Source: a virus (Duplodnaviria > Caudoviricetes). From it: a stretch of 64,000 nt of DNA. The stretch is from the IMG/VR virus record IMGVR_UViG_3300027971_000001. The stretch is one strand, 5' to 3'. Position numbers and translations under genes: made by a program. Shown here piece after piece: positions 7,785-55,680 of this stretch. Under the pieces are notes generated by a model. That model saw only the letters and a list, made by a program, of their open reading frames with translations. It searched no databases and was not told where the DNA came from. Each line of letters opens with the position of its first letter. Within the stretch, counting starts at the first letter, position 1.

Positions 7785-8684
7785 ATGCGTCGAGGCATTT
7801 GTTGTATTGTTCTTAGCTTGCAGGATATGGTTGAACCTAAAAAGTTCAAAACCATGACTTATAAAAAGTTCAGCAGCATGAACCGCAAAGATGGTTTGCA
7901 AGATCTGGGTAATCGCATTCTTAACAATATGATGGTGACAGGTGAAGCCATCAAATTCTGTTATCAAAACAATTACACTTATCGTCTGAGCAGTGATTTG
8001 TTTCCGCTTATCACATATGACAAAGCCAAAATACGATTGGAAGATTTGCCTAATTATATGGAAATATCTGATACCATTCTGCTTATTCGGGATTATCTAA
8101 AAGAGCATCCTGTTCGCTTATCATCCCATCCCAGTGAATTTAATGTGTTGGCCACCGAGAACAAAGATGCATTGAATCGCACCATTAATGAACTGAACTT
8201 CACTGGTTGGTTTCTTACCCAATTGGGTTGTCCTTTGGATTACAACAGCCCCATCAACATTCACATCAACAACAGTAGGGGCAACTTTGATGATATTGCT
8301 AAACGGTTTGTGGATAATCTAGGATCATTAACAGAGGATGCTCGTAAACGATTGGTTGTGGAAAATGATGATAAAGGCAAATGCTGGAGTGTACGCAAAC
8401 TTACCCGTCATCTTTATCCTGTGTTTCAAATGCCTTTGACGTTTGATTATCTGCATCACAAATGCCATCCGGATGACATGATTGAAAAAGATGCATTTGG
8501 TTTGTGCAAGGACACTTGGCGGGGATATCGTCCTTTATTTCATTATAGCGAAAGCAGGGAAGGCAAAAATCCTCGGGCTCATGCTGATTATGTGAAACAA
8601 CTTCCTGATACCTACGGACTGGATGATATTGATATTGATTTTGAATTTAAAATGAAAGACAAAGCTTTTATTAATATAAATTAA
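7785..8684 (+). CDS. uvsE: UV damage endonuclease
   Basis: MRRGICC N-terminus, YRLSSDLFP, LSSHPSEF, LVVENDD, FDYLHH, HYSES, HADY. Confidence 0.92.
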   Translation: MRRGICCIVLSLQDMVEPKKFKTMTYKKFSSMNRKDGLQDLGNRILNNMMVTGEAIKFCYQNNYTYRLSSDLFPLITYDKAKIRLEDLPNYMEISDTILLIRDYLKEHPVRLSSHPSEFNVLATENKDALNRTINELNFTGWFLTQLGCPLDYNSPINIHINNSRGNFDDIAKRFVDNLGSLTEDARKRLVVENDDKGKCWSVRKLTRHLYPVFQMPLTFDYLHHKCHPDDMIEKDAFGLCKDTWRGYRPLFHYSESREGKNPRAHADYVKQLPDTYGLDDIDIDFEFKMKDKAFININ

Positions 8685-8709
8685 ATCGCTTCAATAATAT
8701 TCATTGATG

Positions 8710-9597
8710 CTAAAAAATGCCTATTGTCATCGCTGTCCATAAATCTAATTTAGTTGCGCTATCCAATCTTTGAACACACATAGTTAAAGTTTTTCCATTT
8801 GCAGACAATGGTATGTTGCTTAATGTACTCTCAGCTTCTGAGTTCTTACCAATCACAATGCCACTATGTCTTTTTGTTCCACCTGTAAAACCGTTGGGAG
8901 TATTGCTTCCAAATGCATCAGTATAGAATCGGTATTCAGCATCTGTATTTACAGAAGAAAAAGCTGGTACTGTGCCCGTTATTGTTGCATCCTCATACCA
9001 CACATACCCTATAGTGCTTGAATTGGCATTATTGTTGCCTAATTCATATTCTAATATTTTTACAATTTTAGATGCAGTGTTTTTAGCTCTTATTGTAATC
9101 ATAGGAATTAAATCATCAGACATGGTCCAACCACGATGAGTAAAAATACCGAAATTATGAAATGTATAAATTTCTGGTACTTGTTCTAATATAGTGGCAG
9201 TTACATTTCCAGACACCGGAGACACACCATATGTTTTTACTGCAACAGCACCTACTCTCGTTATTCCTATCGTGTCGATTTGTGTTACCTGTGCATAAAC
9301 ATCATTTCCTGTGCTATGATCAATGATGCCTACATCCCCGATGTTTACATTGCTTGCACTAAGTGTTATGTTGAAATCCTCTGGATTAGCAATATAACTT
9401 AAAACTGCATATTTTGGAAATACATCAACTGAAGAAATTGGAGGATACGAACAACCTGGAGGAAAAAGGGTACTATCAAGATATCTTAACTTTGTTACAG
9501 AAATTGCAGGATACCGAGTGTCACCCGGACTGTATTGTACAAATTTACCATACTCAGCCGTCTGATAATTAGACACTACATTGGTGGTGTAACTCAC
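8710..9597 (-). CDS. Probable virion structural protein (beta-rich)
   Basis: T/S/V/G-rich 295 aa; TAAATA at 9603-9608, 5 nt before GTG 9597 (TTG 9600 alternative). Confidence 0.6.
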   Translation of the reverse strand: MSYTTNVVSNYQTAEYGKFVQYSPGDTRYPAISVTKLRYLDSTLFPPGCSYPPISSVDVFPKYAVLSYIANPEDFNITLSASNVNIGDVGIIDHSTGNDVYAQVTQIDTIGITRVGAVAVKTYGVSPVSGNVTATILEQVPEIYTFHNFGIFTHRGWTMSDDLIPMITIRAKNTASKIVKILEYELGNNNANSSTIGYVWYEDATITGTVPAFSSVNTDAEYRFYTDAFGSNTPNGFTGGTKRHSGIVIGKNSEAESTLSNIPLSANGKTLTMCVQRLDSATKLDLWTAMTIGIF

Positions 9598-9625
9598 CAA
9601 AATATTTAATAAATTAAATTATTAA

Positions 9626-10071: not shown

Positions 10072-11211
10072 TTAGTCTTGTTCCGCATCAGAAGCTGTTT
10101 TTTTGGATTTAAGAATTAATCCCTGAACAATACGTTCTCCTTCTTTATCTCCTTTGAATACCTTTTTGATATCTTCAATAGGAAGGGCAAGAACGCTTTG
10201 ATACACAAAAGGAATATACTTTTGATCTTCAGTGCCTACCAATTCAAATATTTTGTTCCAAAGTTCAGGTCCAGCAATCGTATCTGTAACTTCCTGTTCA
10301 ATCACATCCTTCTTGAGTTTACGTTCCACTGCAGCTTCTGGAACACTCTTGTCCGGATCAATTGCCAAATATTCATAAATTCCTTTAACAATCTCATGAA
10401 CCAAATAAGGAAATGTTTTGGCTAATGCTTTGATTGTATAAATGTCACCTTCTGGAACAACTTCTTCACTTCCTTGGGCAGCAGCTTCAATCATGGGCAA
10501 GCTGAAATTTTCAATTGGAGGTGCAACAAAATAAAACAATTGAGCAACAGTTGTTATTAATCCATAATTGTAAATTAAACTTTTGTCCATTTCGTCCAGT
10601 TGATTTTTAACAAGATTAAAAAGATAAAGTTTGCTGACAGCATTTCCCTGCATGAGTGTGTTGGCCAAACGACGACGCAATTTGGTTTCAGTATCATCAA
10701 AAAGATTTTCTGCCACAATTTGATTCAGTTCTTCCAAATCAGAAAGTCCTTCCACATCTGGAAGCAGTTTGTCTTGGGCTTCTTGTTCAGATTGTGTGAC
10801 TGCATTTTTGAGATCAGGTGTTCCCAGTTTGGCAACAATCTTGAGACGGTTAGAATCCACCAGCTTTTTAACAAATTCAAATTCAGGAAGATCCAGCACA
10901 ACTTGAACAGCCATCTTTTCCAACTTGGCTTTGTTTGCACTTTCCACTTCACTGATTTTATTGAATGCAGCAAAAACCTTGGATACCAATTGAGGAAAAT
11001 TTTGTTGTGTTACCGGAGCTTTGGTATAATGCTGTATTCTCTCTAGCAATTTCTGATAAGCATCTGAAACAATCAATTCATAATAATCCTGTGCTTTTTC
11101 CGGAAGCACACCCAATATTTCTTCGGTTCCAGCTTCAAGCTGTTTGCGTTTCTCTGGATCGATCAGATCAGGTTGTTCACCTGTTTCAATTGCTTCCCGG
11201 AAGTTTTTCAT
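10072..11211 (-). CDS. Conserved helical phage protein, probable head-internal
   Basis: 379 aa; begins MKNFREAIE, resembling a T4 capsid-targeting peptide. Confidence 0.6.
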   Translation of the reverse strand: MKNFREAIETGEQPDLIDPEKRKQLEAGTEEILGVLPEKAQDYYELIVSDAYQKLLERIQHYTKAPVTQQNFPQLVSKVFAAFNKISEVESANKAKLEKMAVQVVLDLPEFEFVKKLVDSNRLKIVAKLGTPDLKNAVTQSEQEAQDKLLPDVEGLSDLEELNQIVAENLFDDTETKLRRRLANTLMQGNAVSKLYLFNLVKNQLDEMDKSLIYNYGLITTVAQLFYFVAPPIENFSLPMIEAAAQGSEEVVPEGDIYTIKALAKTFPYLVHEIVKGIYEYLAIDPDKSVPEAAVERKLKKDVIEQEVTDTIAGPELWNKIFELVGTEDQKYIPFVYQSVLALPIEDIKKVFKGDKEGERIVQGLILKSKKTASDAEQD

Positions 11212-11213
11212 TA

Positions 11214-11492
11214 TCAGGATAGGTTTTTGCGATATTTGAAAAACAGATTAACGTCAGGATTGCGTTTCTTTTCTTCAGCTTCTTCCTCTTCTTCGCTTCC
11301 TTTTGGAACAAGACCTTTTGGACGAGGTTGAAAACCAGGACGCGGTTCAAGAGGGTTGCGACGAGGCGGAGATTTGGGTTCAGTGCTGGGCTTTTCAGTA
11401 TCAGGCTTCACATCCGGCTTTTCAGTAGGAGGTGCTGCCGGAGCAGGTTGCTCTGTTAAATATTTTGTAAATAAATCCTTGAAGCTTTTCAT
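11214..11492 (-). CDS. Pro-rich small protein, probable head-internal
   Basis: MKSFKDLFTKYLTE then a PAAP/EKP-rich stretch; TAAATA 6 nt upstream. Confidence 0.65.
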   Translation of the reverse strand: MKSFKDLFTKYLTEQPAPAAPPTEKPDVKPDTEKPSTEPKSPPRRNPLEPRPGFQPRPKGLVPKGSEEEEEAEEKKRNPDVNLFFKYRKNLS

Positions 11493-11526
11493 TAATATTA
11501 TTTAATCTTTTTAAACTAAAATAAGG

Positions 11527-11946
11527 TCAATTAACCTTATCAATTACCTTATCAACAATGCTATCGGCAGGTTTACCTTCTTTACGCCAACTGTTAAGAA
11601 TTGCATAATACACCAAGTATTGAGGATCCATGATATACAGCTTGTTTCCTTTTTTATCACTAAATTCTGTGACACCATCATTTTCTTTCAATTCCACACC
11701 TTTATAACTCTTGAATTTAACGTGATATGCTTTGACAAGAGTATTGTATCGCAAAACACCAAAGGCGGTTAATATTCCTTTACCATCATCAGTAAATCCG
11801 ATAAAACCGCTGTTTTGCACATCATAACCTGTGGGTGTACTGGCATCATAACTGGCCACTTCATCCTTGATCTTGTCAGGTGTCACAGTGCTACACCCTG
11901 CAATCAAAAGACTACTCAGAGAGAAGATTGCGAATTTCTTTAACAT
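11527..11946 (-). CDS. Lipoprotein, o-spanin candidate
   Basis: MLKKFAIFSLSSLLIAGC lipobox; overlaps the upstream ORF by 35 nt. Confidence 0.6.
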   Translation of the reverse strand: MLKKFAIFSLSSLLIAGCSTVTPDKIKDEVASYDASTPTGYDVQNSGFIGFTDDGKGILTAFGVLRYNTLVKAYHVKFKSYKGVELKENDGVTEFSDKKGNKLYIMDPQYLVYYAILNSWRKEGKPADSIVDKVIDKVN

Positions 11947-12112
11947 CCTTTTCCTTTATGGCTTTTTCTGTTTTGCTTGTGTAATCCACTTCTTTTTGTT
12001 TTTCGTGACGATCCTTCATTTCAGGAGTGTTCTTGGCATTAAACAAATTATTGATTGCACTGAATACTTGGGTTATGGCCGTAAGCACTGCGGTTACTAT
12101 GTTTGTGGGCAT
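11912..12112 (-). CDS. Small membrane-anchored helical protein, i-spanin candidate
   Basis: Hydrophobic N-terminal helix plus charged helix, between holin-like and lipoprotein genes. Confidence 0.45.
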   Translation of the reverse strand: MPTNIVTAVLTAITQVFSAINNLFNAKNTPEMKDRHEKQKEVDYTSKTEKAIKEKDVKEIRNLLSE

Positions 12113-12116
12113 ATTG

Positions 12117-12380
12117 TTACTTATCGCTTATTTTAGGCAAATCAACTTTAGGTTCTTCATCTCTTTTAACATCACTGATGGTTTGATCAATAAATGCCCG
12201 CCATGCTATGAATCCTTGTAAAAAAAAGTTTATAATTATTTGTGCATATATTACGGGGCTTATTTCATTAAATTGCTTAAAACCGCTCAGATCTGACATA
12301 AGGGCTGTCAGAGATGCTATGCTTATGTAAAGAAAACCCCTTAAGAATATTTTTTTAATTTTGAATCTCTTTGCCATCAA
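12117..12380 (-). CDS. Holin-like 2-TM membrane protein
   Basis: Basic N-terminus, two hydrophobic helices, charged C-terminus. Confidence 0.5.
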   Translation of the reverse strand: MMAKRFKIKKIFLRGFLYISIASLTALMSDLSGFKQFNEISPVIYAQIIINFFLQGFIAWRAFIDQTISDVKRDEEPKVDLPKISDK

Positions 12381-13098
12381 TAGTATTTAGCAAAGAAATT
12401 ACCTCATCTTCAAGAAATGGCATGCCTATTTTTTTCCAAATTCCTTCAAAGCTTTCATAATTTTTTATATTTTTTCTTTTGAGCCAATACACTGTTAAAC
12501 GACTGGGTTTCTTTCCGGTCATTTTGGAAAATATATGAGCATATAAACTCAACTGAAGAGCATATGTGAAATATTCGTTGCAAGGCAAATGACTAATAGG
12601 ATCCATGAAATGACTGCTTTCCCACTGACTTGTTGAATATGAAAACTTTTTGTTTGTTTTATAATCAATCACTTCAAAGAAATTATTATCGATATATTCT
12701 GCAATAAGATCTGCTGTTCCTGCAATATGATGATCCATGTCATAAATCATGGTTTCACTCAATACTTTTTTATCCTGAAGCCGATGATCCAGGTTCATTT
12801 TTTTCACAAAAGGTTTCAGGCTGTCATCACATTCTTTTCCTTCCAAATGATTTTGGATGTTGTTATGAATACGGGTGCCAAAACTTGTTCCTTTGTTTTT
12901 AATTTCTTCCCATTCATTCAAAACTTCCTGTTTTACAACTCCTCGTCGCAAGGCTATGCGTTCCGCTATTTTCTCAAAATCAGTTTTTGGTTTAAATTCT
13001 CCAATAAAAGTTGTTACACTTTTAAACAATTGACCATCTGATATTCTTGTATATGAATGTTTCTCTGCATCAAAAATAATTGGACAAGAAATTGACAT
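12355..13098 (-). CDS. PD-(D/E)XK exonuclease (Cas4-like phage family)
   Basis: SVTTFI, GTRIH, SETMIY, AGTADL, IDYKTNK, YALQLSLY. Confidence 0.88.
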   Translation of the reverse strand: MSISCPIIFDAEKHSYTRISDGQLFKSVTTFIGEFKPKTDFEKIAERIALRRGVVKQEVLNEWEEIKNKGTSFGTRIHNNIQNHLEGKECDDSLKPFVKKMNLDHRLQDKKVLSETMIYDMDHHIAGTADLIAEYIDNNFFEVIDYKTNKKFSYSTSQWESSHFMDPISHLPCNEYFTYALQLSLYAHIFSKMTGKKPSRLTVYWLKRKNIKNYESFEGIWKKIGMPFLEDEVISLLNTIDGKEIQN

Positions 13099-13132
13099 CC
13101 ATCGTTTATAACATAAGATAATTTAAATTCAA
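13092..13132. promoter_or_regulatory. Overlapping divergent sigma70-like promoters
   Basis: Minus: TTGAAT(13127-13132)-N16-TATAAA(13105-13110)-N6-ATG(13098). Plus: TTGACA(13092-13097)-N16-TAAGAT(13114-13119). Confidence 0.65.
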
Positions 13133-13138
13133 TGGCAC

Positions 13139-13465
13139 ATGGCACATCGTATACCAAAAACATCAAAAAATTTAAAGGTTGCAAAATCGGCACCTTCAAC
13201 AGAACAAGTCTCAAAACTCGCTTACTCCTTGGTAAAGCATGTAATGACCGCATGCCTGGATTCAGAAAAGCATTATTCTGGGGAGTGGTATGCAGAGGGA
13301 TACAAATGGCACCTGACACGCTCCATCAGGCATGCAACAAACTCGTTGATGCTGGTAGAGAATTTGGACAAAGACTGCAGCAACGAAACCGCCCTTGATC
13401 ATGCCAAAGGTGCTGCCATACGAGCATTGATGGCAGTTGTTTGTTTACAAAACAAGATCAAATAA
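13139..13465 (+). CDS. Possible dATP/dGTP diphosphohydrolase-domain protein (DUF5664-like)
   Basis: KHY...W..G.....SIRH.........D...E..LDHA pattern resembles the DUF5664 KY..NW.KG...RH...D.ESG..HLAHA signature. Confidence 0.45.
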   Translation: MAHRIPKTSKNLKVAKSAPSTEQVSKLAYSLVKHVMTACLDSEKHYSGEWYAEGYKWHLTRSIRHATNSLMLVENLDKDCSNETALDHAKGAAIRALMAVVCLQNKIK

Positions 13466-13865
13466 TTTTACGGACTTTCACGCCGTAAAAATCAAATATC
13501 TCCAAACCTTCTGGATCTGTTATATAATCCTCACCATATATCACTTCTGGAACACCCCACGCACATATCATACGGGCACAATAATTGCAGGGTAAAAGTG
13601 TGCTGGCTATTAATCGGCATTCACCCCGTTCAAAAAGACTAAGAAGATTTGTTTCGGCATGTATCATGTATTTTCTTCGTTCATCTCGATCATTCCAAAA
13701 ATTTTCATCCACATTTTTTCCGGATGCAAGACCATTATAAGCCACACCCAGAACACGATTGTCGAAAGAAAGAGCACATGCTCCTACTTTTTTGTGAGGA
13801 TCCTCACTTCTTTTGCTTGCTTCGATTGCAAGATTCAGAGCATATTTATCCCAACTTAAACGCAT
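13458..13865 (-). CDS. cd: dCMP deaminase
   Basis: RSEDPHKKVGAC, YNG, HAE and PCNYC zinc motifs. Confidence 0.9.
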   Translation of the reverse strand: MRLSWDKYALNLAIEASKRSEDPHKKVGACALSFDNRVLGVAYNGLASGKNVDENFWNDRDERRKYMIHAETNLLSLFERGECRLIASTLLPCNYCARMICAWGVPEVIYGEDYITDPEGLEIFDFYGVKVRKII

Positions 13866-13897
13866 GCTGAATTATAACATATAAAATATATTTTCAA
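13866..13897 (-). promoter_or_regulatory. Sigma70-like promoter abutting start codon
   Basis: TTGAAA(13892-13897)-N15-TATAAT(13871-13876)-N5-ATG(13865), extended TG. Confidence 0.7.
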
Positions 13898-13929
13898 CAA
13901 ACACCACCAAAAGTTATCTAAATACTATT

Positions 13930-14136
13930 ATGGAATCGGTTGCAAAAATACTGACAGAAAACAACAAGCATCTTTCTGATGCACTATATGTTGGGTATGA
14001 TGATGAGAATGATACCGTTCTATTGGTATGTGAACATGCATTTATTGAAAAATTTCAAAAGATGTTCAGCAAATATGGCAATCAGAGTGTTTATTTCGAG
14101 GAAACTGAATCAGCAGGGATAATGGTTTATATATAA
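13930..14136 (+). CDS. Small hypothetical protein
   Basis: 68 aa; TAAATA at 13919-13924, 5 nt upstream. Confidence 0.6.
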   Translation: MESVAKILTENNKHLSDALYVGYDDENDTVLLVCEHAFIEKFQKMFSKYGNQSVYFEETESAGIMVYI

Positions 14137-14137
14137 A

Positions 14138-14311
14138 TTATTCCAAGTCTTCCAAAAATTTTTCCCCTATACCAAAAGTTTTTTCTAGAATTTGTTTTTC
14201 TTCCTTGTTTAAAAACAATCTGCCCACATTGTTTCCTTCAATATACAAATCTGCATGTACTATCCCGTTGGATAGTTTGGAAATAATGTCTAATTTTACC
14301 GATTGGTTCAA
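14138..14311 (-). CDS. Small hypothetical protein (57 aa)
   Basis: TTG start, MNQSVKLDIISKLSNGIVHADLYIEG...; fills the gap; not in the ORF track. Confidence 0.5.
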   Translation of the reverse strand: MNQSVKLDIISKLSNGIVHADLYIEGNNVGRLFLNKEEKQILEKTFGIGEKFLEDLE

Positions 14312-14321
14312 TTTAAAAACT

Positions 14322-17300
14322 TTATGCTTGAGCTTCAGTCCAAGATAATCGGGATTGTACAGGGATTGTTAAAGAAGTATTAAAACCACTGGAAAGTGGT
14401 GTTACTAATACGTGCAACACGTCAGGACCGTCTGGATATACGTCTTGTGCAGAGGATGAAACAAAATTGCTTATTCCACCTCCCAAAATACTGTTACCCA
14501 AATCTCTTACAACTGTAAGATCCTCAACCTGTCTGGGACCTGCTGCAAAAAATCCATAAATTGATTCACCACCGACTACTGAAACAGCAGCAGTTCCTGT
14601 ATAATAACTGATTTGTGCAAGGCTTGATCCTCCAATGGACTGCCAAGGATAATTGACAGGTCCTGCAGGAGTTAACAGTTTTCCATTCAAATTAAGTTCA
14701 ACACGAGCAATTGGATTATTGGATACATTATTAAACACAGGCAAACTAATATCCATGGATTGAAGTTTCAATTGCATTCTGTTGATCACTTCTTTAACTC
14801 CCAATGCACCAGTTCTTCCACTGTCAACACTAGGGGCAAGACGCAAACTCATAATAGCATTTCTTATTCCAGGAACTATAGATGTTGGAGCAGTATTTCC
14901 TGCATTAAATGAATAAGACAAATCATTATCAAATCTTCCATCCATGATAACACTGCTTCCCCAATGACTGATTACAGCTGCGGGTGTTCCTGAAATTGCA
15001 GGGGTTGTATTGTTAAGAGCTGCAAGTTCTATTACAACAGGAGCTGTTGGTGAATATGTGAATGTGGTTGCTACGGTTCCTCCAGCTTGTGCTCTGGTTA
15101 GTCCTGTGAATGTTGTGGCCGTTTTTCCTGTGTATGCAATATATTCAATTGCAGCGGATCCACTTGGGAATGTTGTAGCATCTGTTACACGCAATAATCC
15201 TGTTGATGGGAAATTGCTAGCATCGGCAACATTCATTGTGGTTGTTTCAGAACTGGCAAGTGTAGAAGCCAATGATGTTGAATTAAGGAAAGAATTTACT
15301 TCATATCGGGCCGGTAAATTTCCAGAACGGAAATATGCCTCGGTATTAACATTGTTATTAACCATTTTATGGCAATAACTGACATTTCCATTTGCAGATC
15401 TCATTCCCCATCTTATGAATCCTGCTCCATACCATGAGTAGTCAATATAAAGCATCTGCATTTTTGATAAGTCAACAGTATAACCACTTGGACCTGTTCC
15501 GTTAAATTTGTCAATGTTCCAAGCACTTTGAGGAACTTTAGTATCTATAGTTTTACTAACAACCGCAAACGATGGAGATACAATTGAAGGACCTCTGTAT
15601 TCAGGACTAATCAATAATTGCGTTTGACTTATAATGCTTGTTACGCGATAGCTGATTCCTTTTATTACAATAAAATCTCCGAACTTCAATTGATCAGCAA
15701 ATCTTGTATTTGTTCCGGTAACAATATTTTGTCCGCTTAATACGCTTACATTTCCTTGAATTTGATATGTACTGTTTCTACGAACAACATAAAGATTTTG
15801 TCCGTCAAATTCAAAAAATGCACCGTTTTGATTATCAAACATTCCAACACGAACAGTTCCATTATACCAAGAATTTGCTCCTGCAATTATAAAATTATTT
15901 CCGGATGCTGAAGCAGGAGAAGTTGGTGTTCCAGCAATAGTATATGTAAATGAAAGATCATTCGGAACCGAAGCAACTGTGAATATTCCGTTATAATCGG
16001 ATTGAGCAGCACCAGAAAGATAAATTTGAGATCCTGGAACCATTCCGTGAAGATTTTTTGTATTCACAGTTACCACCCCACCTGAATATGTGACTTGATC
16101 TAAATTGAAATTGGGCTTTAAAAGGGTTCCTGTGCTGAATTGAATTCCTTTTCCGGATTGATAACGGAAATATCTACGGGTTTGACGAATGTGTTGTGCA
16201 TTCGGTGTATAAGCTCCATTTGAAAATTGTATTCCACCATCATATGCACGATGAAGAGAGAACCCTGCAGGACGAGAATACACGCAATTTGCTGGTGAAG
16301 TTGTAACTGCGGTGCCTGTTCCAATTGCAACTGTAGGTGTATCATTTGCACTAAATGTGAATGATCTGGTATTTGGTGTTGTTAATACAACGTGAGAACC
16401 AGATGGTCCAGGTGAAGTTGCACAGTAAACGTTTGAAACGAAAATTAAATCGCCAACATACAAATTATGTGCTGAAACTGTAGTACAAGTGATTATACGA
16501 GGATCTGCCGGTGCTGCACCTGCATTAAAAGTAAAAGCTGTGCTATTTCCAGTATTCACCGGAATAGAAGCGCCAGAATAAAAACTACAAGGGAATGTTA
16601 AAGTTTTTGTGTAATCATAAATCGTTCCAGGTGCTATTGAATTTTTAACTGTATATTTGTATGCCGATGTATATCCAGGTCCTACCGTATAATATTCAGA
16701 TAGATAAAAACCGTTTGCATTATAATCTGTGGCATCCTGAACATAAATTACAACAGGATAATTATTTGTTCCGTATGATACTCCTCCTGTAGGAATGCTT
16801 CTATCAAAAAAACCACCAAAAACGGGTTGACCTGTTAACGATACAGACCTTGAACCGTTTGCGGAAAGTGACCAAGTATTGTTTGGTATAATAAACGGAG
16901 TTGTTGAATCATAAAAAACTGTTGGTTTATTATTCAGAAGTTGAACAAATTCCCATTTGGTGCTTTGTAACCCATATTCAAAATCGGTATCAATCAAAGA
17001 TTGTGGTTGGCTAACTCTGCTTTTGTTGACTGGATCAAAATATTCCTCTTGAGGAACAATTGCCATGGTAGGTGTATCGTAAATTACTTGAAGTTGATCC
17101 GCAGAATTATAACCTCCTGTTGTTGTATCCAATTGAAGTGTTAAAGTTTTTCCATTCGCATCCCATGTACCACCCAATCCCGATATGCTTTCTGCATAAA
17201 GAATATTGTTTGTTGTTTGATCTACAACAACCATCAACCTATTATTTGTAAAATTAGGAACAGCAGAGAAACTAAGTGTTTTTGTGCTGGGTGTAAAAAC

Positions 17301-17327
17301 CGGATTTGTTGTTAAAACAGATTTCAT
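14322..17327 (-). CDS. Large virion structural protein (fibre/baseplate-associated, 1001 aa)
   Basis: S/T/G/N-rich beta-sandwich composition, repeated HxL..G..I.(L/V)S module; TATAAATA at 17337-17344. Confidence 0.75.
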   Translation of the reverse strand: MKSVLTTNPVFTPSTKTLSFSAVPNFTNNRLMVVVDQTTNNILYAESISGLGGTWDANGKTLTLQLDTTTGGYNSADQLQVIYDTPTMAIVPQEEYFDPVNKSRVSQPQSLIDTDFEYGLQSTKWEFVQLLNNKPTVFYDSTTPFIIPNNTWSLSANGSRSVSLTGQPVFGGFFDRSIPTGGVSYGTNNYPVVIYVQDATDYNANGFYLSEYYTVGPGYTSAYKYTVKNSIAPGTIYDYTKTLTFPCSFYSGASIPVNTGNSTAFTFNAGAAPADPRIITCTTVSAHNLYVGDLIFVSNVYCATSPGPSGSHVVLTTPNTRSFTFSANDTPTVAIGTGTAVTTSPANCVYSRPAGFSLHRAYDGGIQFSNGAYTPNAQHIRQTRRYFRYQSGKGIQFSTGTLLKPNFNLDQVTYSGGVVTVNTKNLHGMVPGSQIYLSGAAQSDYNGIFTVASVPNDLSFTYTIAGTPTSPASASGNNFIIAGANSWYNGTVRVGMFDNQNGAFFEFDGQNLYVVRRNSTYQIQGNVSVLSGQNIVTGTNTRFADQLKFGDFIVIKGISYRVTSIISQTQLLISPEYRGPSIVSPSFAVVSKTIDTKVPQSAWNIDKFNGTGPSGYTVDLSKMQMLYIDYSWYGAGFIRWGMRSANGNVSYCHKMVNNNVNTEAYFRSGNLPARYEVNSFLNSTSLASTLASSETTTMNVADASNFPSTGLLRVTDATTFPSGSAAIEYIAYTGKTATTFTGLTRAQAGGTVATTFTYSPTAPVVIELAALNNTTPAISGTPAAVISHWGSSVIMDGRFDNDLSYSFNAGNTAPTSIVPGIRNAIMSLRLAPSVDSGRTGALGVKEVINRMQLKLQSMDISLPVFNNVSNNPIARVELNLNGKLLTPAGPVNYPWQSIGGSSLAQISYYTGTAAVSVVGGESIYGFFAAGPRQVEDLTVVRDLGNSILGGGISNFVSSSAQDVYPDGPDVLHVLVTPLSSGFNTSLTIPVQSRLSWTEAQA

Positions 17328-17336
17328 TTCTTATAT

Positions 17337-17344
17337 TATTTATA
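17337..17344 (-). promoter_or_regulatory. T4-type late promoter TATAAATA
   Basis: Exact T4 late consensus 9 nt before ATG 17327; gp55 is encoded in this window. Confidence 0.7.
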
Positions 17345-17347
17345 TAT

Positions 17348-17659
17348 TTAGCTGAATAAGACTGCGGATATAAATCCATATAAAGCACTATTGCTGTTTA
17401 AGTTAGTATATGCTGACTCATATTTGGAACTATTTGCATTAAGACTTGTATAAGCACTGTTTCCGCCCTGCCAGCTTGCACTATTAGCATTAACTGTGGT
17501 GTATGTTCCTGCTGAAAAGCTGCTTAATCCTGATGCCAAAGTGGTGGTTAAGTCATTATAACCTATCCTTGTTTCACTTATATTTCTATAACCAACAAGG
17601 AAATCTGTAGCTCCCAGACCGCTTATTTGCTGAAATGTTGCGAAAGTATCGTTGGCCAT
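17348..17659 (-). CDS. Short fibre-like structural protein
   Basis: N-terminus (F..F.....L...D.LVGY) and YT..NANSA repeats shared with 44169-45677. Confidence 0.65.
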   Translation of the reverse strand: MANDTFATFQQISGLGATDFLVGYRNISETRIGYNDLTTTLASGLSSFSAGTYTTVNANSASWQGGNSAYTSLNANSSKYESAYTNLNSNSALYGFISAVLFS

Positions 17660-17660
17660 A

Positions 17661-18614
17661 TTACATTCCCATTCCTCTTTGTTGTTGTTCCTTGTATATC
17701 ACCTTTTCTTTTTCTATAATCTTGGGTTTTTCAACAATATGGTGTTTTTCAATAATTTTAGGTTCAACAAAGGTTTCAACAATATTTAGCTTAGTTTTTT
17801 CCAAATATTGATATAAAAGAACCAATGACAATGCCATAGGATCAAAAACAAAGATTAATACCAAAATAAAATAACGCACTGTTCGGTCCAAATCCAATCC
17901 CAATCCATCTGCAATAAACTTGAATGTCAAAATATCACTCTTTTTGGCTTGAGTTTGACGACTGTTTAATATCTGATTTTCCAAATCCAATATCTCTTTT
18001 TGAATAATATCATATTGTTGCATCAAATTTGAATATTCAGTATTTGCATTTTGAATTGCATCTGATGAAATCTGGATCATTTTGTCTTTTGTTTGTTGGG
18101 CTTTTTTATCGTTATAAACAATCTTTTCACCATCCCGATCTTTTCCTTCTACCATTGTGGTGCTTTTTACAGCATCATTCAAACGCAGTTCTTGTTCTTT
18201 TTTGCTATCATTTAATTTTTTAAGACGATCATCGTATTGAACAAGCATTTCCTTTTTCTTGCTTTTGATACTTTCCAGATTTATTATTTTTCCTTCATCA
18301 ATACTATATTCTGCTTTACTGACAGTATAAGCTGAACTAAGAAATCCATAAATTCCAAGACTTGTAATAATTGAAAGAGCAACCACTCCTGCAAACAAGT
18401 ACGTTTTTAAGAATTTGTTAAGATTTCCCCAAAGATTATGAAGTCCTACAGTTGCTGTAAACTTAGCTGCTTCAAGACCTAATCCCAAAATAATAATGCT
18501 TATAAACTGGCTTTTGAAAAGATGTGCCATTCCATAAACAGAAAAGAATGCAGCACTACCTGCAAGAATGAATATGCTTCCAAGAAGCGAAGGCTTGAAC
18601 CAATTCTGCTTCAC
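17661..18614 (-). CDS. Membrane protein with 3+1 TM helices and coiled coil
   Basis: AAFFSVYGMAHLF, LEAAKF N-terminal TMs, long coiled coil, IFVFDPMALSL TM. Confidence 0.7.
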   Translation of the reverse strand: MKQNWFKPSLLGSIFILAGSAAFFSVYGMAHLFKSQFISIIILGLGLEAAKFTATVGLHNLWGNLNKFLKTYLFAGVVALSIITSLGIYGFLSSAYTVSKAEYSIDEGKIINLESIKSKKKEMLVQYDDRLKKLNDSKKEQELRLNDAVKSTTMVEGKDRDGEKIVYNDKKAQQTKDKMIQISSDAIQNANTEYSNLMQQYDIIQKEILDLENQILNSRQTQAKKSDILTFKFIADGLGLDLDRTVRYFILVLIFVFDPMALSLVLLYQYLEKTKLNIVETFVEPKIIEKHHIVEKPKIIEKEKVIYKEQQQRGMGM

Positions 18615-19054
18615 GAAAGGAATGTAATATCACCAGAAGAAGGAGCAGCTCCACCTGCTGTTACTCTTGCACCATTTGCATTGATGGGAAGAATACCAAC
18701 AGGAACTGTTCCGAAACTTATCCATTGTCCTCCTATATAAAAATCATAAGCTTTGCTGGCTCCAACAAAAACATTGGCTCCTGCTGAAACCGGATCCAGA
18801 ACAGTGTTTACAGTGATGGGAATAGCTTTTGTGAATCCCGCTGGAGTTGTTACAACGGCATATCGATTATAAACATATGGCTGAATGTCTATAAATGCAG
18901 GATTGGCACAAACGCTGGGGTTTAGTGACGAATTTAGTATATTTTGCTTGTAAGATGTTACAGGAGGAAAAGCAGTGCTACTTGCTAGCTCTTTAAACTT
19001 TCCTTCTTCAAACGTTTGGTAATATCTGACTACATTTGCTGGTAAATATGCCAT
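18611..19054 (-). CDS. Probable structural protein
   Basis: 147 aa, beta-rich; TAAATA 5 nt upstream (19060-19065). Confidence 0.6.
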   Translation of the reverse strand: MAYLPANVVRYYQTFEEGKFKELASSTAFPPVTSYKQNILNSSLNPSVCANPAFIDIQPYVYNRYAVVTTPAGFTKAIPITVNTVLDPVSAGANVFVGASKAYDFYIGGQWISFGTVPVGILPINANGARVTAGGAAPSSGDITFLS

Positions 19055-19077
19055 GCAAATATTTAGTAAAAATGGCT

Positions 19078-19275
19078 TTAATTAATAAAACCATTTTTCA
19101 AATTATATACACTATTTCCTTCTTGGTCTGTTATTTCCAGGATTTCATCCGTATAACAATTTATTTTTTCAAAAATACTTTTGTGGGCTTCATGAGCATC
19201 CAACGCACTCACGTCTTGAGTATGAATCTGTTTCTTTTCATTGTTAATGATCTTTACAGTGTACTTTTCATTCAT
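19078..19275 (-). CDS. Small hypothetical protein
   Basis: Start corrected to MNEKYTVK (19275): TAAATA at 19281-19286 is 5 nt upstream, and the longer ORF would overlap the upstream gene. Confidence 0.6.
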   Translation of the reverse strand: MNEKYTVKIINNEKKQIHTQDVSALDAHEAHKSIFEKINCYTDEILEITDQEGNSVYNLKNGFIN

Positions 19276-19303
19276 AAAACTATTTACAACCTTGTTTGAA
19301 TTT

Positions 19304-19519
19304 TTAAAGCTGGGAAGGACGCTTAATATGTAATGTAAAATTCTCACAGCCAACACAATCTTCAATATTAAAGCAACGAAATCTTCCGTCATTTAGCTGA
19401 ACAATAAACATAGGAGAATGGTCTAGACCATAATCAATCAATACTATTGCACGACCTTCACCATGTTCTTTGGCTTGAACCCATATTGGCGGTTCAAGCT
19501 GCAACAATGTTTGCCTCAT
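19304..19519 (-). CDS. Conserved small phage protein
   Basis: LQLEPPIWV...G...LIDYG..H...IVQL resembles a widespread phage family. Confidence 0.7.
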   Translation of the reverse strand: MRQTLLQLEPPIWVQAKEHGEGRAIVLIDYGLDHSPMFIVQLNDGRFRCFNIEDCVGCENFTLHIKRPSQL

Positions 19520-19878
19520 TAGAAACTACCCAGATGTTCAATACCTGTTTTTTTATTTAATATATTATTTTCTGTCAGAATAAAATTGCCATATACATTT
19601 GTTTGCAAAATATTTTTATTTTGCAAATTAATACTGCGTCCCATGTTTTTATCAGCTATTGCTTCAATTATCAAACAAGGAGAAAAGCCATTTAAAAACA
19701 TGCTATTACTTTTCCATTCATAAACATACCGATTTCCATGTACTTGCTTAAGGAAAAGAACAGGTCTTTTTTCACAAAATAGGCTTAAATAAGCATCAAT
19801 TTTTGCAAAATTCTCTTGAATATGCCTATTTCCTGTATACAATGATGCAATATTTTTATAGTCCTGTGCAAGCTTCAT
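19519..19878 (-). CDS. Hypothetical late protein
   Basis: 119 aa; TAAATA 6 nt upstream. Confidence 0.6.
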   Translation of the reverse strand: MKLAQDYKNIASLYTGNRHIQENFAKIDAYLSLFCEKRPVLFLKQVHGNRYVYEWKSNSMFLNGFSPCLIIEAIADKNMGRSINLQNKNILQTNVYGNFILTENNILNKKTGIEHLGSF

Positions 19879-19911
19879 CCTTATTATTTAGTAATATAAA
19901 TATTATATAAA

Positions 19912-20352
19912 ATGAGTTTAAAACTTTGTTTTACTCGTAGGTTCAACAGGTTACTAAGCGAACTTAAGATTGATGATGGTTTTTTAAGAAAAGAGATATT
20001 AAACCTTTTCAAAGGTATAAAGAAAAAAATACGTTCTAAACGATTATTTTTCGATACTCATGGCAACCTTAAGAATTCGTGTTATGTGCATTGTTTGATA
20101 CGCATTCAAACATATTCAATTGATAATTGTCACTTTAATAAAAAGCGACGTAATTTTTTACGAGATCTACTGCATGAATTAAGGCATTTCCAACAACACA
20201 TAATTTACCAAATGGATATGAATGAGTATAGCTTAAAAGACATGAATGAAATAACAAAAGAGTATTACAACAGCAAAATTGAAATCGATGCCAGAAAATA
20301 CGAAAAACGTTACGTCAAAATTTATAAACGTCTCAGAAAACTTTACGGTTGA
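19912..20352 (+). CDS. HExxH zincin-like metallopeptidase-motif protein
   Basis: LLHELRHFQQ followed by EIDAR; TATAAATA at 19895-19902. Confidence 0.6.
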   Translation: MSLKLCFTRRFNRLLSELKIDDGFLRKEILNLFKGIKKKIRSKRLFFDTHGNLKNSCYVHCLIRIQTYSIDNCHFNKKRRNFLRDLLHELRHFQQHIIYQMDMNEYSLKDMNEITKEYYNSKIEIDARKYEKRYVKIYKRLRKLYG

Positions 20353-20623
20353 TAAGGTAAAGAGTTCCAGGGATGCAAAAAAATAACCATCCCAGATCAA
20401 AAAGAAATCCGGCAATAAACAAACTCAACCAAAAACTAATGCATATATGGCAACCGTTTAGTTTTGCCAGCAATGGATATTTTAATGAAAGATAATCTTG
20501 CAAAGGAATTTTTGTAAAAATTTGAAAATGTTCCTGAATAGGACTTTTAAACCATATAACCAAAAGGGTTTCAACAATCAAACCCGCAAGAAAAATTGAT
20601 TCAAGCAGCATTTTCCAAAACAA
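20333..20623 (-). CDS. Membrane protein with CxxC (DUF1360-like)
   Basis: Hydrophobic helices flanking LNGCHICISFW. Confidence 0.55.
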   Translation of the reverse strand: MFWKMLLESIFLAGLIVETLLVIWFKSPIQEHFQIFTKIPLQDYLSLKYPLLAKLNGCHICISFWLSLFIAGFLFDLGWLFFCIPGTLYLINRKVF

Positions 20624-20846
20624 GATTTTTTTTGATTGCTTGAATAGTGTTGGTTCTTAAATTATTATGCATGCAAGGATAACATCCACCTTGCTTTTTC
20701 AAATTGGCATTGGCCGTGATATAATTGTTTCTTAACGATTGGCAATTCTGAATTTCACTTGGACAAGGTTCTTCCATAATGAAAAACTGGTTTATTATAT
20801 TATATTCCCGAACAATATCCATAAACTTATAATCCAAAAGTGGCAC
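20601..20846 (-). CDS. Small Cys-containing hypothetical protein
   Basis: PCPSEIQNC...GGCYPC; coupled to neighbours. Confidence 0.6.
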   Translation of the reverse strand: MPLLDYKFMDIVREYNIINQFFIMEEPCPSEIQNCQSLRNNYITANANLKKQGGCYPCMHNNLRTNTIQAIKKNLVLENAA

Positions 20847-21912
20847 TAAATGCGCTAGTCAAAGTGGTAAATGTCTGAGTTACTGGATTATATTTTTTAA
20901 ATGCTATTGTATCAACATAAGCATCATACCCGTCATCCACATTGATAAATGTACCCGCATGTACAAATACATCTTTGCTATTTTCTCCTTGGAAAAATGC
21001 ATTATATGAAATGGGCAAGATGGTTTCCACTGCACTCAAAGCAGCCACAAGAATAGCATCTGTAGCTATCTTCATTCTTGAAGCATATGTCCCACCTTGA
21101 GTAGGAGATGCGGCAGTTAATGCATTTCTTGTGGTTCGGTTTGAATATAATGTATTAACAAGTGTATATTGTTGAAAATCATTAATAGTAAATTCTGCAC
21201 TAGGGAATGTTGGTGCGGTTGCACTCAAAGGACCAACGATTCGAGCTTGAGCTGCATTTACAGCTCCACATGTTTGGCTAAGATTTCCACCTTGACCTCG
21301 ACGCTTCATGAAACCTACTTGACCACTCTTTGTAATTCCAATATGAGGATGCACATATATGAACAATGCACCCGTTTCAGTTACGTGACTCATCCATGCG
21401 AAAAGACCAACTATTCCTGGGAAAGGATATCCACCAATTCCTCCTGCAAAGAATGGACCACTGAATTGTTGCAGAGATTCTGGATATTGCCCAAACGTGT
21501 TATTGGGGAATATGGGTGCATTTTTATCATCAGAACAAATACAAGCCGCCGTGATCACATCATCTGGGGTATAACCACAAAGAGTTTGTATAAATGTGGC
21601 ACATCTACTTCCAAATGTTTCTGCCAAAACAGCATTAGGATATGTAATTCTTACAGTGCTCGTATAAGCACTTTGATCGGCAGTAGCAGGTGATGTTTGG
21701 GTAGTATTGAATAAAGGAATATAATATGTTGCTCCATTGATCAAAACAGGCAATCCGGTAGAACCTTGGCTAATAGTTAGCCCAGTTGTGTAATTAGAAG
21801 CACTTGTCGGAAAACCGTATGTGCTATCAATTAAATTTTTAAAATCATTAGAAGAAGGTGTATGACCTGCTGAAAACGAATCGTATAGTGCATCTTTGCT
21901 TACAATTGACAT
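20827..21912 (-). CDS. LCIB-family beta-carbonic anhydrase fused to a fibre-type N-terminal module
   Basis: CSDD, GPFFAGGIGGYPFPGIVG, HPHIGIT, R.GQ...TCGA, DFQQ, GTFIN follow the LCIB/C signature with Cys/His/Cys zinc ligands; N-terminal SKDALYDSFSAGHTPSSNDFKNLIDS. Confidence 0.85.
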   Translation of the reverse strand: MSIVSKDALYDSFSAGHTPSSNDFKNLIDSTYGFPTSASNYTTGLTISQGSTGLPVLINGATYYIPLFNTTQTSPATADQSAYTSTVRITYPNAVLAETFGSRCATFIQTLCGYTPDDVITAACICSDDKNAPIFPNNTFGQYPESLQQFSGPFFAGGIGGYPFPGIVGLFAWMSHVTETGALFIYVHPHIGITKSGQVGFMKRRGQGGNLSQTCGAVNAAQARIVGPLSATAPTFPSAEFTINDFQQYTLVNTLYSNRTTRNALTAASPTQGGTYASRMKIATDAILVAALSAVETILPISYNAFFQGENSKDVFVHAGTFINVDDGYDAYVDTIAFKKYNPVTQTFTTLTSAFSATFGL

Positions 21913-21920
21913 AATATTAT

Positions 21921-23717
21921 TTATGCAGGGGTTGGTGTTTCTCCACCTGTTGTTTCAGGTGTTTCTGGAGCTTCAGGTGCTTCTGGAGGAGCTTCCCCAC
22001 CGGCTTCAGGGGCTTCAGGGGCTGGTGTGGGTCCTCCTGGTGTTGGGCCAAATTCAGGAGGGGTTTCCGCTCCTCCACCTGCTTTTGGCTGCTTTTCACC
22101 ACTTTCAAACTGTTTACGCCAATCTGGACCTGCTCCTGAGATTTGATCAATCTCCCACTTGAGTTCGGCATCTTTACGAAGGAATTCACGATTGGCAAGA
22201 ACCATACGGTCAGTCCATCCCAAAATCTTCTTTTGCATGTAAATCTTGCTAATACTGTCATTATTAGTGATATTATTGAATCCTTCTGTACGCATCTGCA
22301 TTTTTTGCAATTCACGCATTTCATAAAAATTAGAGGGAACATTAAAAGTAAGATCAATATGATTCTCTTTCAAACCATACTCACTCCACATTCTTTTTAG
22401 TTTAAGATTTGTGATAAATCCATTCTTAAGACCATCAGCAAAACGAAGCTGTTGACGAATGATAAATTTGGAAAATTTAAGTTCTTCCCGAAGAATTTCT
22501 GTTCCATCCTTATATGTGTCTTCTGGATTCAAACGAGAAGAAGGAACTTTCAAACTTCTGTACAACTTTTTCATGAAGTACATTAAGTCATTCAATTCAC
22601 CCAGATTCTGACCACCTTGTAGTTGTGTTACATTGGTTCCTTCTTGACCAGTGCGCTTGGCAAACCAAAAACTATCTAACATGCTTTGTGGATTGAATTT
22701 CTGTACTGTTGCATCTTGACTGGAATCAAACGTTTTGCGATTCCAATACTGTTGCATGAGACGACGCATGTATCCTTCTGCTTTGGCCGGACTCATGTTT
22801 CCAACATCCACATTAAAAACAAGCTTTTCTGGAGCACGAACCAAACGATAAATTACAATACTATCTTCAATCAATGAAAGCTGGCGATAAGCTCGACGTG
22901 CATTTTCAAGAAAAGGAAGACGAACTGTTTTGTTTTCATTCCATATTCCGCTATTAATATAAGTTACCTGATTCTTATCCAAAGGAACGATTTGATAATC
23001 CACAACCTTAGTTGGATTTGTTTTATCAAAAATAGGTTTTCTTAAAACGAAACCTTTAACCAAAAGATTCTGCACATTTCCAAAAACAGGATCTATCAAC
23101 TCCGGAGGAATACTGACAACACCAAGAATACCTTCTTGGGGATAATCTCTATGAATGATATGCTCGAAATAAATTTCTGCATCCACAAGCAAATGACGGA
23201 AATATTCCCATCCCCTATGCTCTAATTCAAAAAGATTAATATAACGACGAAATTCCTTTTCAATTTCTTCTCTCTGAATATCTGTCAATTCAGAATCATG
23301 AAAACGCAGCTTTACAATTCTTCCTTCTTCATCGACATTTATAACTTCATCACAAATTTCATCCAATGCATCTGCAACTTCTGAAAAAGCTGCCATCGTT
23401 CTATAATCTCGGATTCTTGCTGCTTTATCTGATTGTATATTTGCATACAAATAAGTTGATAAACTGTTATCACTTGCAATTGCTCCAATGCTAGTTTCAT
23501 TTACGCTTGTGCTACTGCTTATACTATGTTTGGCAATTGCTTCTGTACGACGACTTCCAGTATCTTGAAAAAGAGAGAACTTAGGATTTAGTTGGGACAA
23601 AACATCAACAACAGAATAATTGTTGTATGGAAGACGTTCACTTATAAACTTTTGCAACCCACGACCAAAAGTTGTTGATCCACGATCATTTGTGGATGAG
23701 TAATCCGGTTGAGCCAT
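21921..23717 (-). CDS. 20: Portal protein (T4 gp20-like)
   Basis: YRLVRAPEKLVFNVDVGNM, SMLDSFWF, LYRSLKVPSSRL, ILREELKFSKFI; Pro/Glu-rich tail; TATAAATA at 23724-23731. Confidence 0.96.
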   Translation of the reverse strand: MAQPDYSSTNDRGSTTFGRGLQKFISERLPYNNYSVVDVLSQLNPKFSLFQDTGSRRTEAIAKHSISSSTSVNETSIGAIASDNSLSTYLYANIQSDKAARIRDYRTMAAFSEVADALDEICDEVINVDEEGRIVKLRFHDSELTDIQREEIEKEFRRYINLFELEHRGWEYFRHLLVDAEIYFEHIIHRDYPQEGILGVVSIPPELIDPVFGNVQNLLVKGFVLRKPIFDKTNPTKVVDYQIVPLDKNQVTYINSGIWNENKTVRLPFLENARRAYRQLSLIEDSIVIYRLVRAPEKLVFNVDVGNMSPAKAEGYMRRLMQQYWNRKTFDSSQDATVQKFNPQSMLDSFWFAKRTGQEGTNVTQLQGGQNLGELNDLMYFMKKLYRSLKVPSSRLNPEDTYKDGTEILREELKFSKFIIRQQLRFADGLKNGFITNLKLKRMWSEYGLKENHIDLTFNVPSNFYEMRELQKMQMRTEGFNNITNNDSISKIYMQKKILGWTDRMVLANREFLRKDAELKWEIDQISGAGPDWRKQFESGEKQPKAGGGAETPPEFGPTPGGPTPAPEAPEAGGEAPPEAPEAPETPETTGGETPTPA

Positions 23718-23723
23718 ATTATT

Positions 23724-23731
23724 TATTTATA
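23724..23731 (-). promoter_or_regulatory. T4-type late promoter TATAAATA
   Basis: Exact consensus 6 nt before the portal ATG (23717). Confidence 0.75.
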
Positions 23732-45677: not shown

Positions 45678-45707
45678 TTGTAATATTTACAAAAATGGGA
45701 TGGAATA

Positions 45708-55250: not shown

Positions 55251-55672
55251 GATGTTGTTGTTAATTTTTTTGTTAAAGTATCAGCATATTTTGCAAAAGC
55301 ATTAACCACTCCTTGTGTTACAGTGTCCACAACTCGTTTTTGTTGAGGATTCATTAATGTACGAAGAACGCCTATGTCAGATTGAGACATGGATTTAGGA
55401 TCATAACCACCGGTTGATGATTCTTGATCTTCCTCCTCTTCTTGAGAATCAGCATGTGGAGTAACAGCGCCTTTTTGATCTATTTTATATTTTCCTTTTT
55501 TTCCATCCACATCATAACTAATAATTCCACACATTTTTTCCATTCCTTCATATTTGGCTTTTCCGGAAGAAACCATTTTATCAATTAAATTTTTTTGAAT
55601 ATCATTTAATTCATCACCTTTAATGTCCAATTTAAGATATTCTTGTTCAAGTAGTTTATGAAAACGAGGCAT
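55247..55672 (-). CDS. Probable head-internal protein
   Basis: MPRFHKLLEQE; TAAATA 5 nt upstream. Confidence 0.55.
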   Translation of the reverse strand: MPRFHKLLEQEYLKLDIKGDELNDIQKNLIDKMVSSGKAKYEGMEKMCGIISYDVDGKKGKYKIDQKGAVTPHADSQEEEEDQESSTGGYDPKSMSQSDIGVLRTLMNPQQKRVVDTVTQGVVNAFAKYADTLTKKLTTTS

Positions 55673-55680
55673 AAAAGTAT

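Follow-up and report, generated by a model that had tools for sequence, protein, structure and literature searches.

The 64,000-nt stretch analysed here (the window; IMG/VR record IMGVR_UViG_3300027971_000001, a virus of the Caudoviricetes) encodes, directly after its portal gene, a 361-residue protein with a carbonic anhydrase (CA) domain of the LCIB family. The explanation that we favour, and hold at roughly even chances when all its parts are taken together, is that this protein is a zinc-dependent LCIB/theta-type beta-CA of a phage-specific clade, which is made late in infection, is probably active, and carries a swappable N-terminal address. The gene (P0001) is located at 20827..21912 on the minus strand, with an ATG start and the stop codon at 20827-20829. 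The original prediction, made from the DNA letters alone, described it as an LCIB-type beta-CA fused to a fibre-type anchor and possibly displayed on the virion. The enzyme part of this description holds well, whereas the likeness of the N-terminus to phage fibre proteins could not be recovered.

The carbonic anhydrase domain and its phage-only clade

LCIB/theta CAs are parts of algal, and possibly bacterial, inorganic-carbon handling. Residues ~83-361 of the window protein are almost certainly a genuine LCIB-family beta-CA. The Pfam family LCIB_C_CA (PF18599) matches with 89.3 bits against a cut-off of 25 (E value 2.9e-25), and the domain (residues 83-361; 20830..21666 on the minus strand) is delimited by the structure model, Foldseek and a family profile against the PDB. 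The LCIB motifs listed in the original prediction all belong to the minus-strand frame and are found in order: CSDD at residues 126-129, GPFFAGGIGGYPFPGIVG at 152-169, HPHIGI at 188-193, RRGQ at 204-207, CGA at 215-217, DFQQ at 245-248 and GTFIN at 320-324. An opposite-strand open reading frame (ORF) at 21169-21693 was rejected as a shadow of the CA gene.

A phmmer search against the PDB sequences returns LCIB-family chains only, the best being 6kfs (E value 5.5e-14) and PtLCIB4 (2e-10), followed by the weaker CrLCIC and CrLCIB. With a profile of 53 family sequences, the values for 6kfs and PtLCIB4 are 1.5e-24 and 1.6e-23. The AlphaFold2 model, built from the same 53-sequence family alignment (predicted template modelling score 0.73), shows block means of the predicted local distance difference test (pLDDT) that are mostly 82-96 over residues 80-361 but fall to 59-75 at residues ~121-180. 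The top eight Foldseek matches of this model in the PDB are LCIB-family chains (E values 1.9e-13 to 9e-6), with target-normalised template modelling (TM) scores of 0.71-0.85. The best fits are 5b5y (PtLCIB4; E value 1.9e-13, TM score 0.81) and 6kfs (TM score 0.85), and canonical beta-CAs rank after the LCIB chains, with E values above 0.01. The matches among AlphaFold DB clusters are mostly algal LCIB-domain proteins of 17-22% identity. Sequence, profile and predicted fold thus agree on an LCIB-type structure, with the Cys/His/Cys zinc ligands and the Asp intact, as had been proposed.

Residue equivalences were read from the profile alignment to PtLCIB4 and two deposited mutants (S47R, chain 5b60; H88A, chain 5b5z), and the residue roles were taken from PDB entry titles, alignments and reviews. 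The codons of C126-S127-D128 (21529..21537; all codons on the minus strand) encode the first zinc ligand, the equivalent of PtLCIB4 Ser47, which is Arg in the S47R mutant, and the catalytic Asp. The second zinc ligand is H190 (21343..21345) in the HVG/HIG (PHIG) motif, and the third is C215 (21268..21270) in the TCGA motif within the aligned C-G segment; C126, H190 and C215 line up with the C(S)D, HVG and C-G positions of PtLCIB4 and 6kfs. H176 (21385..21387) aligns with PtLCIB4 His88, the residue replaced by Ala in 5b5z. R204 (21301..21303) is the first Arg of RRG in a segment aligned to the RRG of PtLCIB4 and 6kfs, making R204-R205 the equivalent of the PtLCIB4 motif, and from this position R204 is likely the dyad partner of the Asp. 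An Arg in this region of CrLCIB has been named as important (PMC5876011).

The conservation alignment comprises 174 distinct sequences of the family, the most diverged being ~34% identical to the window protein. C126, D128, D129, H176, H190, R204 and C215 are each present in 174/174. Position 127 is Ser in 148 and Ala in 26 of the 174 members and is never Arg; CrLCIB and LCIC, by contrast, reportedly carry an Arg beside the first Cys. The C-terminal motif GTFINVDD is invariant and specific to the phage clade. With its active site intact, the protein is probably catalytically active as a carbonic anhydrase. The PtLCIB3/4 proteins are reported to be constitutively active (PMC9614477).

The closest described relatives are the theta-CAs PtLCIB4/PtLCIB3 from Phaeodactylum tricornutum (PDB ID 5b5y) and the protein in 6kfs. 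They resemble the phage protein in fold (TM score 0.81-0.85), in the Cys-His-Cys ligands, the Asp, the His88 equivalent, RRG, the Ser after the first Cys, and the glycine-rich GG..G.PF.G segment. The phage protein differs from them in being phage-encoded, in having only ~20% identity, in an extra 80-residue N-terminal module plus linker, in the presence of GTFINVDD, and in an Ala or Gly at the Arg of the "EVxRP" segment. Its activity is predicted only.

A single-protein word-indexed search gave 52 metagenome protein clusters and a profile search 147, all with PF18599; all 147 are on contigs of at most 217 kb from freshwater metagenomes. In IMG/VR, 58 loci carry the CA gene, and two of these records are complete by CheckV, one of 203 kb with terminal repeats and one of 217 kb. 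Of the nearest ESM Atlas clusters, 36 have PF18599; the best three are 69-93% labelled viral. A structure search of BFVD found no LCIB fold at an E value of 0.001 or below, the best match being a Pandoravirus CA (0.066). A pattern scan of 185,579 species genomes gave 108 pattern matches, none of which was confirmed, with patterns that are phage-specific and limited to close relatives, so that distant cellular LCIBs are not expected to show. Portal and CA identities to relatives come in pairs of 61%/68%, 59%/69% and 47%/49%; because portal identity tracks CA identity, the data fit a long residence of the CA gene in this phage group. The original prediction knew of no virion-anchored CA, and a literature search agrees, finding neither a virion-anchored CA nor any paper on LCIB-type CAs in phages.

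The CA gene thereby reveals a large, strongly constrained, phage-only LCIB branch in lake metagenomes of at least 17 studies, with late-type promoter boxes and with N-terminal modules that change by lineage.

Late-type boxes and gene neighbourhood

The sequence upstream of the CA gene reads ...CCTGCATAAATAATATT-ATG. It includes the box CATAAATA (21918..21925, minus strand), whose end is 5 nt upstream of the ATG and which agrees at 7 of 8 positions with TATAAATA, the late consensus of T4. As the original prediction had read it, the TAAATA overlaps the TAA stop codon of the portal gene (21921-21923). The gp20-like portal gene (21921..23717, minus strand; 598 residues; phrog_213, E value 3.4e-108) is separated from the CA gene by an intergenic gap of 8 nt and is itself preceded by a perfect TATAAATA, with 6 nt between this box and the portal ATG. 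A terminator scan of the minus strand from the portal to the CA gene found none.

The window has 19 occurrences of the arrangement TAAATA-N5/6-ATG, where shuffled sequences give 4.4 +/- 2.1, and none of 100 shuffles reaches 19. Among the 62 TAAATA sites on both strands, 15 are at a gap of 5-6 nt before one of the 84 called starts; examples of boxes before starts are at 23715-23729, 45675-45689, 19052-19065 and 55670-55683. The boxed genes include those for the portal, a 502-residue fibre-like protein and, with a gap of 9 nt, a 1001-residue virion structural protein. No box was seen before the helicase, SbcC, exonuclease and dCMP deaminase genes of the window. Shine-Dalgarno-like motifs precede 11 of the 84 window genes. 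The likeness to the gp55-dependent T4 late promoters covers the octamer, perfect before the portal and 7/8 before the CA gene, and its place before structural genes, whereas the window boxes differ in ending 5-6 nt before the start codon and in the rarity of Shine-Dalgarno-like motifs. Because of these two differences, the mRNAs may be leaderless or nearly so.

Box and gap are also found before the LCIB genes of relatives, in 22 of 55 distinct upstream regions, where the upstream neighbour may be the portal, the major capsid gene, a gene for a 443-residue protein, or an opposite-strand gene. Loci L013 and L016 have the box clear of the portal stop codon, so it is the box that is conserved and not its overlap with the stop codon. 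Taken together, the pattern suggests a gene-by-gene, possibly leaderless, late transcription in the window, and we are fairly confident that the CA gene is expressed late. It would be transcribed from its own ATAAATA-N5-ATG box, possibly as a leaderless mRNA.

A survey of relatives for portal synteny and for the fusion had been proposed with the original prediction. The CA gene follows the portal in 12 close relatives, and the N-terminal module is kept in the window-type clade; outside this clade the N-termini are different. In five relatives of ~80% identity the CA gene comes after the prohead protease, scaffold and major capsid genes, and in the sister clade described below, whose CA proteins begin with a common leader, it comes after long fibre-like genes. 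The association of the CA gene with late and structural genes is frequent but not universal. The nearest record (G001, 17 kb) lacks the CA gene.

The window itself is a T4-like myovirus stretch with a GC content of 32-41%, and its genes include those for a tail-sheath stabiliser, large virion and fibre-like proteins, a helicase, SbcC, a dCMP deaminase and glycosylation. Its DNA recurs in freshwater and lake metagenomes of 17 studies. An ORF of 81 residues (20601-20846, minus strand), kept only in the nearest relatives L010-L012, shares 20 nt with the 3' end of the CA gene and encodes cysteines in the pattern C-x7-C ... C-x2-C. In loci L013-L019, whose CA proteins are 91-93% identical to that of the window, homologues of the window genes 11912, 11527, 11214 and 10072 come directly after the CA gene. 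From this gene order, ~9 kb (window ~12000-20800, including the gene for the 1001-residue structural protein) are placed differently in the window phage.

N-terminal modules of the window protein and its relatives

The N-terminal module of the window protein covers residues 1-66 (21715..21912, minus strand) and is predicted by AlphaFold2 to form two short helices and a beta-hairpin (TGLPV.I.G.TYYIP). It is followed by a Ser/Thr/Pro-rich linker at residues 67-82 (FNTTQTSPATADQSAY; 21667..21714, minus strand), which varies in length and sequence in the clade alignment. The pLDDT is 46-60 over residues 1-78 and below 50 at residues 68-76. Eight members of the window-type clade share 21 invariant columns in the module, and its identity of ~43-80%, against 73-95% for the whole protein, indicates that it diverges faster than the enzyme domain.

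Residues 1-35 and LPVLINGATYYIPL had been likened to the N-terminal modules of phage fibre proteins. Both peptides are present, and no search reproduces the resemblance; outside the window-type clade the module is an orphan. The module has no match in Pfam, its best PHROGs match is a family of unknown function (E value 0.038), and the best tblastn match among 50,697 phage records has an E value of 2. A hidden Markov model of the module from the clade finds no match outside its own clade among ~4,400 locus ORFs, the ESM Atlas gives a score of 0.76, which is under any useful level, and hhalign against three other N-terminal types gives probabilities below 1%.

What varies in the wider family is the N-terminus, and the type that a protein has goes with its clade in the CA-domain tree. 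The window-type clade (29 sequences, support 0.987) is sister to, and nested among, proteins that begin with another leader. This sister-clade leader is ~35 residues long, reads M(P/A)N(V/P)PNF.DL.R.QR, and stands at the start of the CA proteins; it also heads other proteins of the same gene clusters, with 42-65% identity and E values of 4e-5 to 5e-7 in a database of 4,300 ORFs. Among these are RCC1 beta-propeller proteins of 784-847 residues with a C-terminal match to phrog_677 (baseplate wedge tail-fibre connector), BspA-type leucine-rich repeat (LRR) proteins, and proteins of 195-550 residues with long Pro/Thr linkers. The leader heads 3-7 otherwise unrelated proteins per phage (CA, RCC1, LRR and unknowns), usually followed by Pro/Thr-rich linkers. 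Leader-bearing genes are found at L006:3480-4526, 8001-9005, 10198-10785 and 10904-12139, L028:8915-10567, L032:4012-6555, L065:4233-6587, G004:148199-152119 and G005:115734-124494, with three in G004 and four in G005, all on the same strand within 4-9 kb. The sister-clade leader is a candidate for a common docking or targeting tag.

The arrangement recalls modular phage appendages, such as branched tailspike and fibre sets and the N-terminal attachment of fibritin, in that one leader is common to the CA, RCC1 and LRR proteins and is then followed by Pro/Thr linkers. It differs from these appendage proteins in that no homology to a described adaptor and no partner protein of the window N-module was found, so that attachment is putative.

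Other lineages have other N-termini. In L055, L057 and L064 the N-termini are common to a 776-residue Ser/Thr-rich protein and to small stand-alone ORFs. Such ORFs of 67-89 residues, directly upstream of the CA genes and copying their N-module (L055:6621-6830, L057:5678-5881, L061:158-367, L063:652-873 and L064:749-1018), appear to be stand-alone address modules. The fibre-looking N-termini of L055, L059 and L064 have no match in phage isolates, so their fibre-like look rests on the sharing of modules within a locus. The CA proteins of L059 and L062 (7767-8891 and 5769-6893) start with the first 73 residues of a neighbouring-type 307-residue protein, at 70-75% identity, whereas the sister loci L056 (6902-7825) and L060 (1222-2142) have a separate upstream gene for that protein. 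The CA genes of L059 and L062 look like gene fusions by deletion.

Tandem LCIB paralogues, 3-8 nt apart, are also found in relatives, each pair consisting of a long protein (361-406 residues) with an N-extension and a late-type box and a short one (285-314 residues) with neither. They are located at L003:6889-8903, L004:4782-6790, L035:7605-9729, L037:7602-9668, L039:6859-8921, L040:6898-8948, L041:6887-8948 and L042:7680-9735. The long/short paralogues of L003-5 and L035-42 recall the two-subunit complex of the same family in Chlamydomonas, the LCIB/LCIC hetero-oligomer (PDB IDs 5k5w and 5b5x); the window phage differs in having a single gene, and the matches to these chains are weaker (E values 1e-5 to 1e-8). 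Overall, the family gives the picture of an enzyme cargo that is conserved and of N-terminal addresses that can be exchanged.

Two other window proteins, of 147 residues (18611-19054, minus strand) and 296 residues (8710-9600, minus strand), have their first ~52 residues in common (38% identity, E value 1e-6). Homologues of the 296-residue protein, one with PKD/Laminin_G_3 domains, flank the CA gene in L008.

Tethered enzyme, free enzyme or reused fold

The protein would fold into the usual beta-CA dimer or oligomer and interconvert CO2 and bicarbonate. More tentatively, its order of N-module (residues 1-66), Ser/Thr/Pro linker and enzyme may represent an address-plus-cargo design, in which the enzyme would be held by its N-module on a partner, in the likeliest case a structure of the virion or of its assembly. 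By analogy with the sister clade we regard such tethering as a tentative proposal, at somewhat under even chances. The bolder version, in which freshwater T4-like phages would mount an active CA on the virion through interchangeable N-terminal modules, alongside LRR and RCC1 binders, seems to us on the whole unlikely; if it were true, an infecting particle would bring a CO2/bicarbonate (local pH) chemistry of its own to the surface of the host or inside the cell.

Several observations weigh against parts of this reading. The tethering step depends on the analogy with the sister clade, since the N-module of the window protein has no detectable sibling: phmmer finds none among the ORFs of the 64-kb window, none is seen in the related partial records G002, G003, G009 and G010 (42-85 kb), and an exhaustive phmmer search over 1.84e9 proteins returns only a 71-residue fragment of its own clade and junk repeats. 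Two of the phmmer matches (P0055 and P0056) are low-complexity repeat ORFs and were rejected. Some of the leader-bearing proteins have a gp9-like C-terminus, which could itself be the anchor, and the leader may then serve otherwise. In the lineages with tandem pairs, the CA genes are found among non-structural, opposite-strand and nucleotide-metabolism-type genes. The INPHARED phage isolates give no tblastn or megablast match to the CA protein or locus, and thus include no cultured phage with the gene. In four lake metatranscriptome libraries, contigs of 156-210 nt map to 21134-21633 with 0-7 mismatches each; they come from runs chosen using the CA gene and may reflect DNA carry-over, so that they are weakly compatible with transcription of the CA gene, and they are silent on its timing and starts. 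With regard to activity, CrLCIB and LCIC show none in vitro despite having the same residues (PMC5876011), so an intact site makes activity likely and not proven. Moreover, no phage member has the Arg that cellular proteins carry in the "EVxRP" segment, which follows closely on the first Cys; Ala or Gly stands in its place.

Chief among the rivals is an enzyme free in the cytoplasm, comparable to the products of auxiliary metabolic genes, whose N-module would be an oligomerisation or regulatory add-on. We consider it a serious possibility, at about a third of the overall weight. Such an enzyme could speed the equilibration of CO2 and bicarbonate for bicarbonate-using carboxylations, buffer the pH late in infection, or dissipate the inorganic-carbon pool of the host. 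The missing siblings of the N-module in the window and related records and the setting of the tandem pairs would be expected of a free enzyme, as would the lack of an N-extension on the second protein of each pair and the fully conserved catalytic site. Virus-encoded alpha, beta and gamma CAs have already been read as auxiliary genes (bioRxiv 10.64898/2026.01.21.700432). These and the Pandoravirus beta-CA resemble the window protein in being virus-encoded CAs whose active-site residues are conserved; they differ from the LCIB-type proteins in belonging to the canonical classes, in being without N-terminal address modules, and in having no tie to a late or structural gene context. The late-type box and the place of the gene after head genes in two sub-clades speak against a free enzyme, and so does the sister-clade leader, which is shared with fibre-like proteins. 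Metabolic takeover genes are usually early. A role in short-circuiting the carbon-concentrating mechanism of cyanobacteria was considered and down-weighted: such a target is not indicated, since psbA is absent from the two complete relatives and the portal is distant from cyanophage g20 (~32% identity by tblastn).

A second rival is a non-catalytic CA fold reused as a binding or structural module, for example a receptor-binding tip or a decoration, with the zinc only stabilising the fold. The substitution of the conserved cellular Arg by Ala or Gly would fit this, as would the binding domains (LRR and RCC1) of the sister-clade proteins that bear the same leader, and CrLCIB/LCIC, which have the fold and the zinc site but no measurable activity, have been proposed to act as a structural barrier (PMC5876011). 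Against it, the zinc ligands, Asp128, His176 and Arg204 are invariant over the 174 sequences down to ~34% identity, and it is the enzyme domain that is conserved and the N-terminus that varies. In a binding domain, the distal end is normally what varies fastest. Since the N-terminus changes here and the catalytic residues never do, we consider the reused fold improbable.

Least probable of all is an internal cargo of the head, which would be enclosed in the capsid and enter the cell together with the DNA, as the internal proteins of T4 do: the position of the gene after the portal or major capsid gene would agree with it, but the 66-residue N-module with its beta-hairpin is far longer than the T4 targeting peptide, and residues 1-97 contain no Glu and hence no T4-type L/I-x-E protease site, for which reason a T4-type capsid-targeting leader was rejected.

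If the preferred reading of a late-made, probably active enzyme with an exchangeable address is correct as to activity, these phages would change the CO2/bicarbonate chemistry at the onset or in the course of infection, a function outside the current lists of auxiliary genes, and if the protein is borne on the virion it would represent a new type of particle-associated enzyme. The family also offers an example, compact and open to testing, of address-plus-cargo modularity among late phage proteins; since the CA protein is small and soluble-looking, its activity and zinc content are directly testable.

Apart from the CA gene and its neighbours, the window encodes at 3619-4602 (plus strand) a 327-residue protein that matches phrog_1211 (E value 1.1e-71), a family with the PHROG label "2-aminooxy adenylosuccinate synthetase". 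We would guess that it is a short PurA- or PurZ-like enzyme, possibly of relevance to a modified-adenine pathway.

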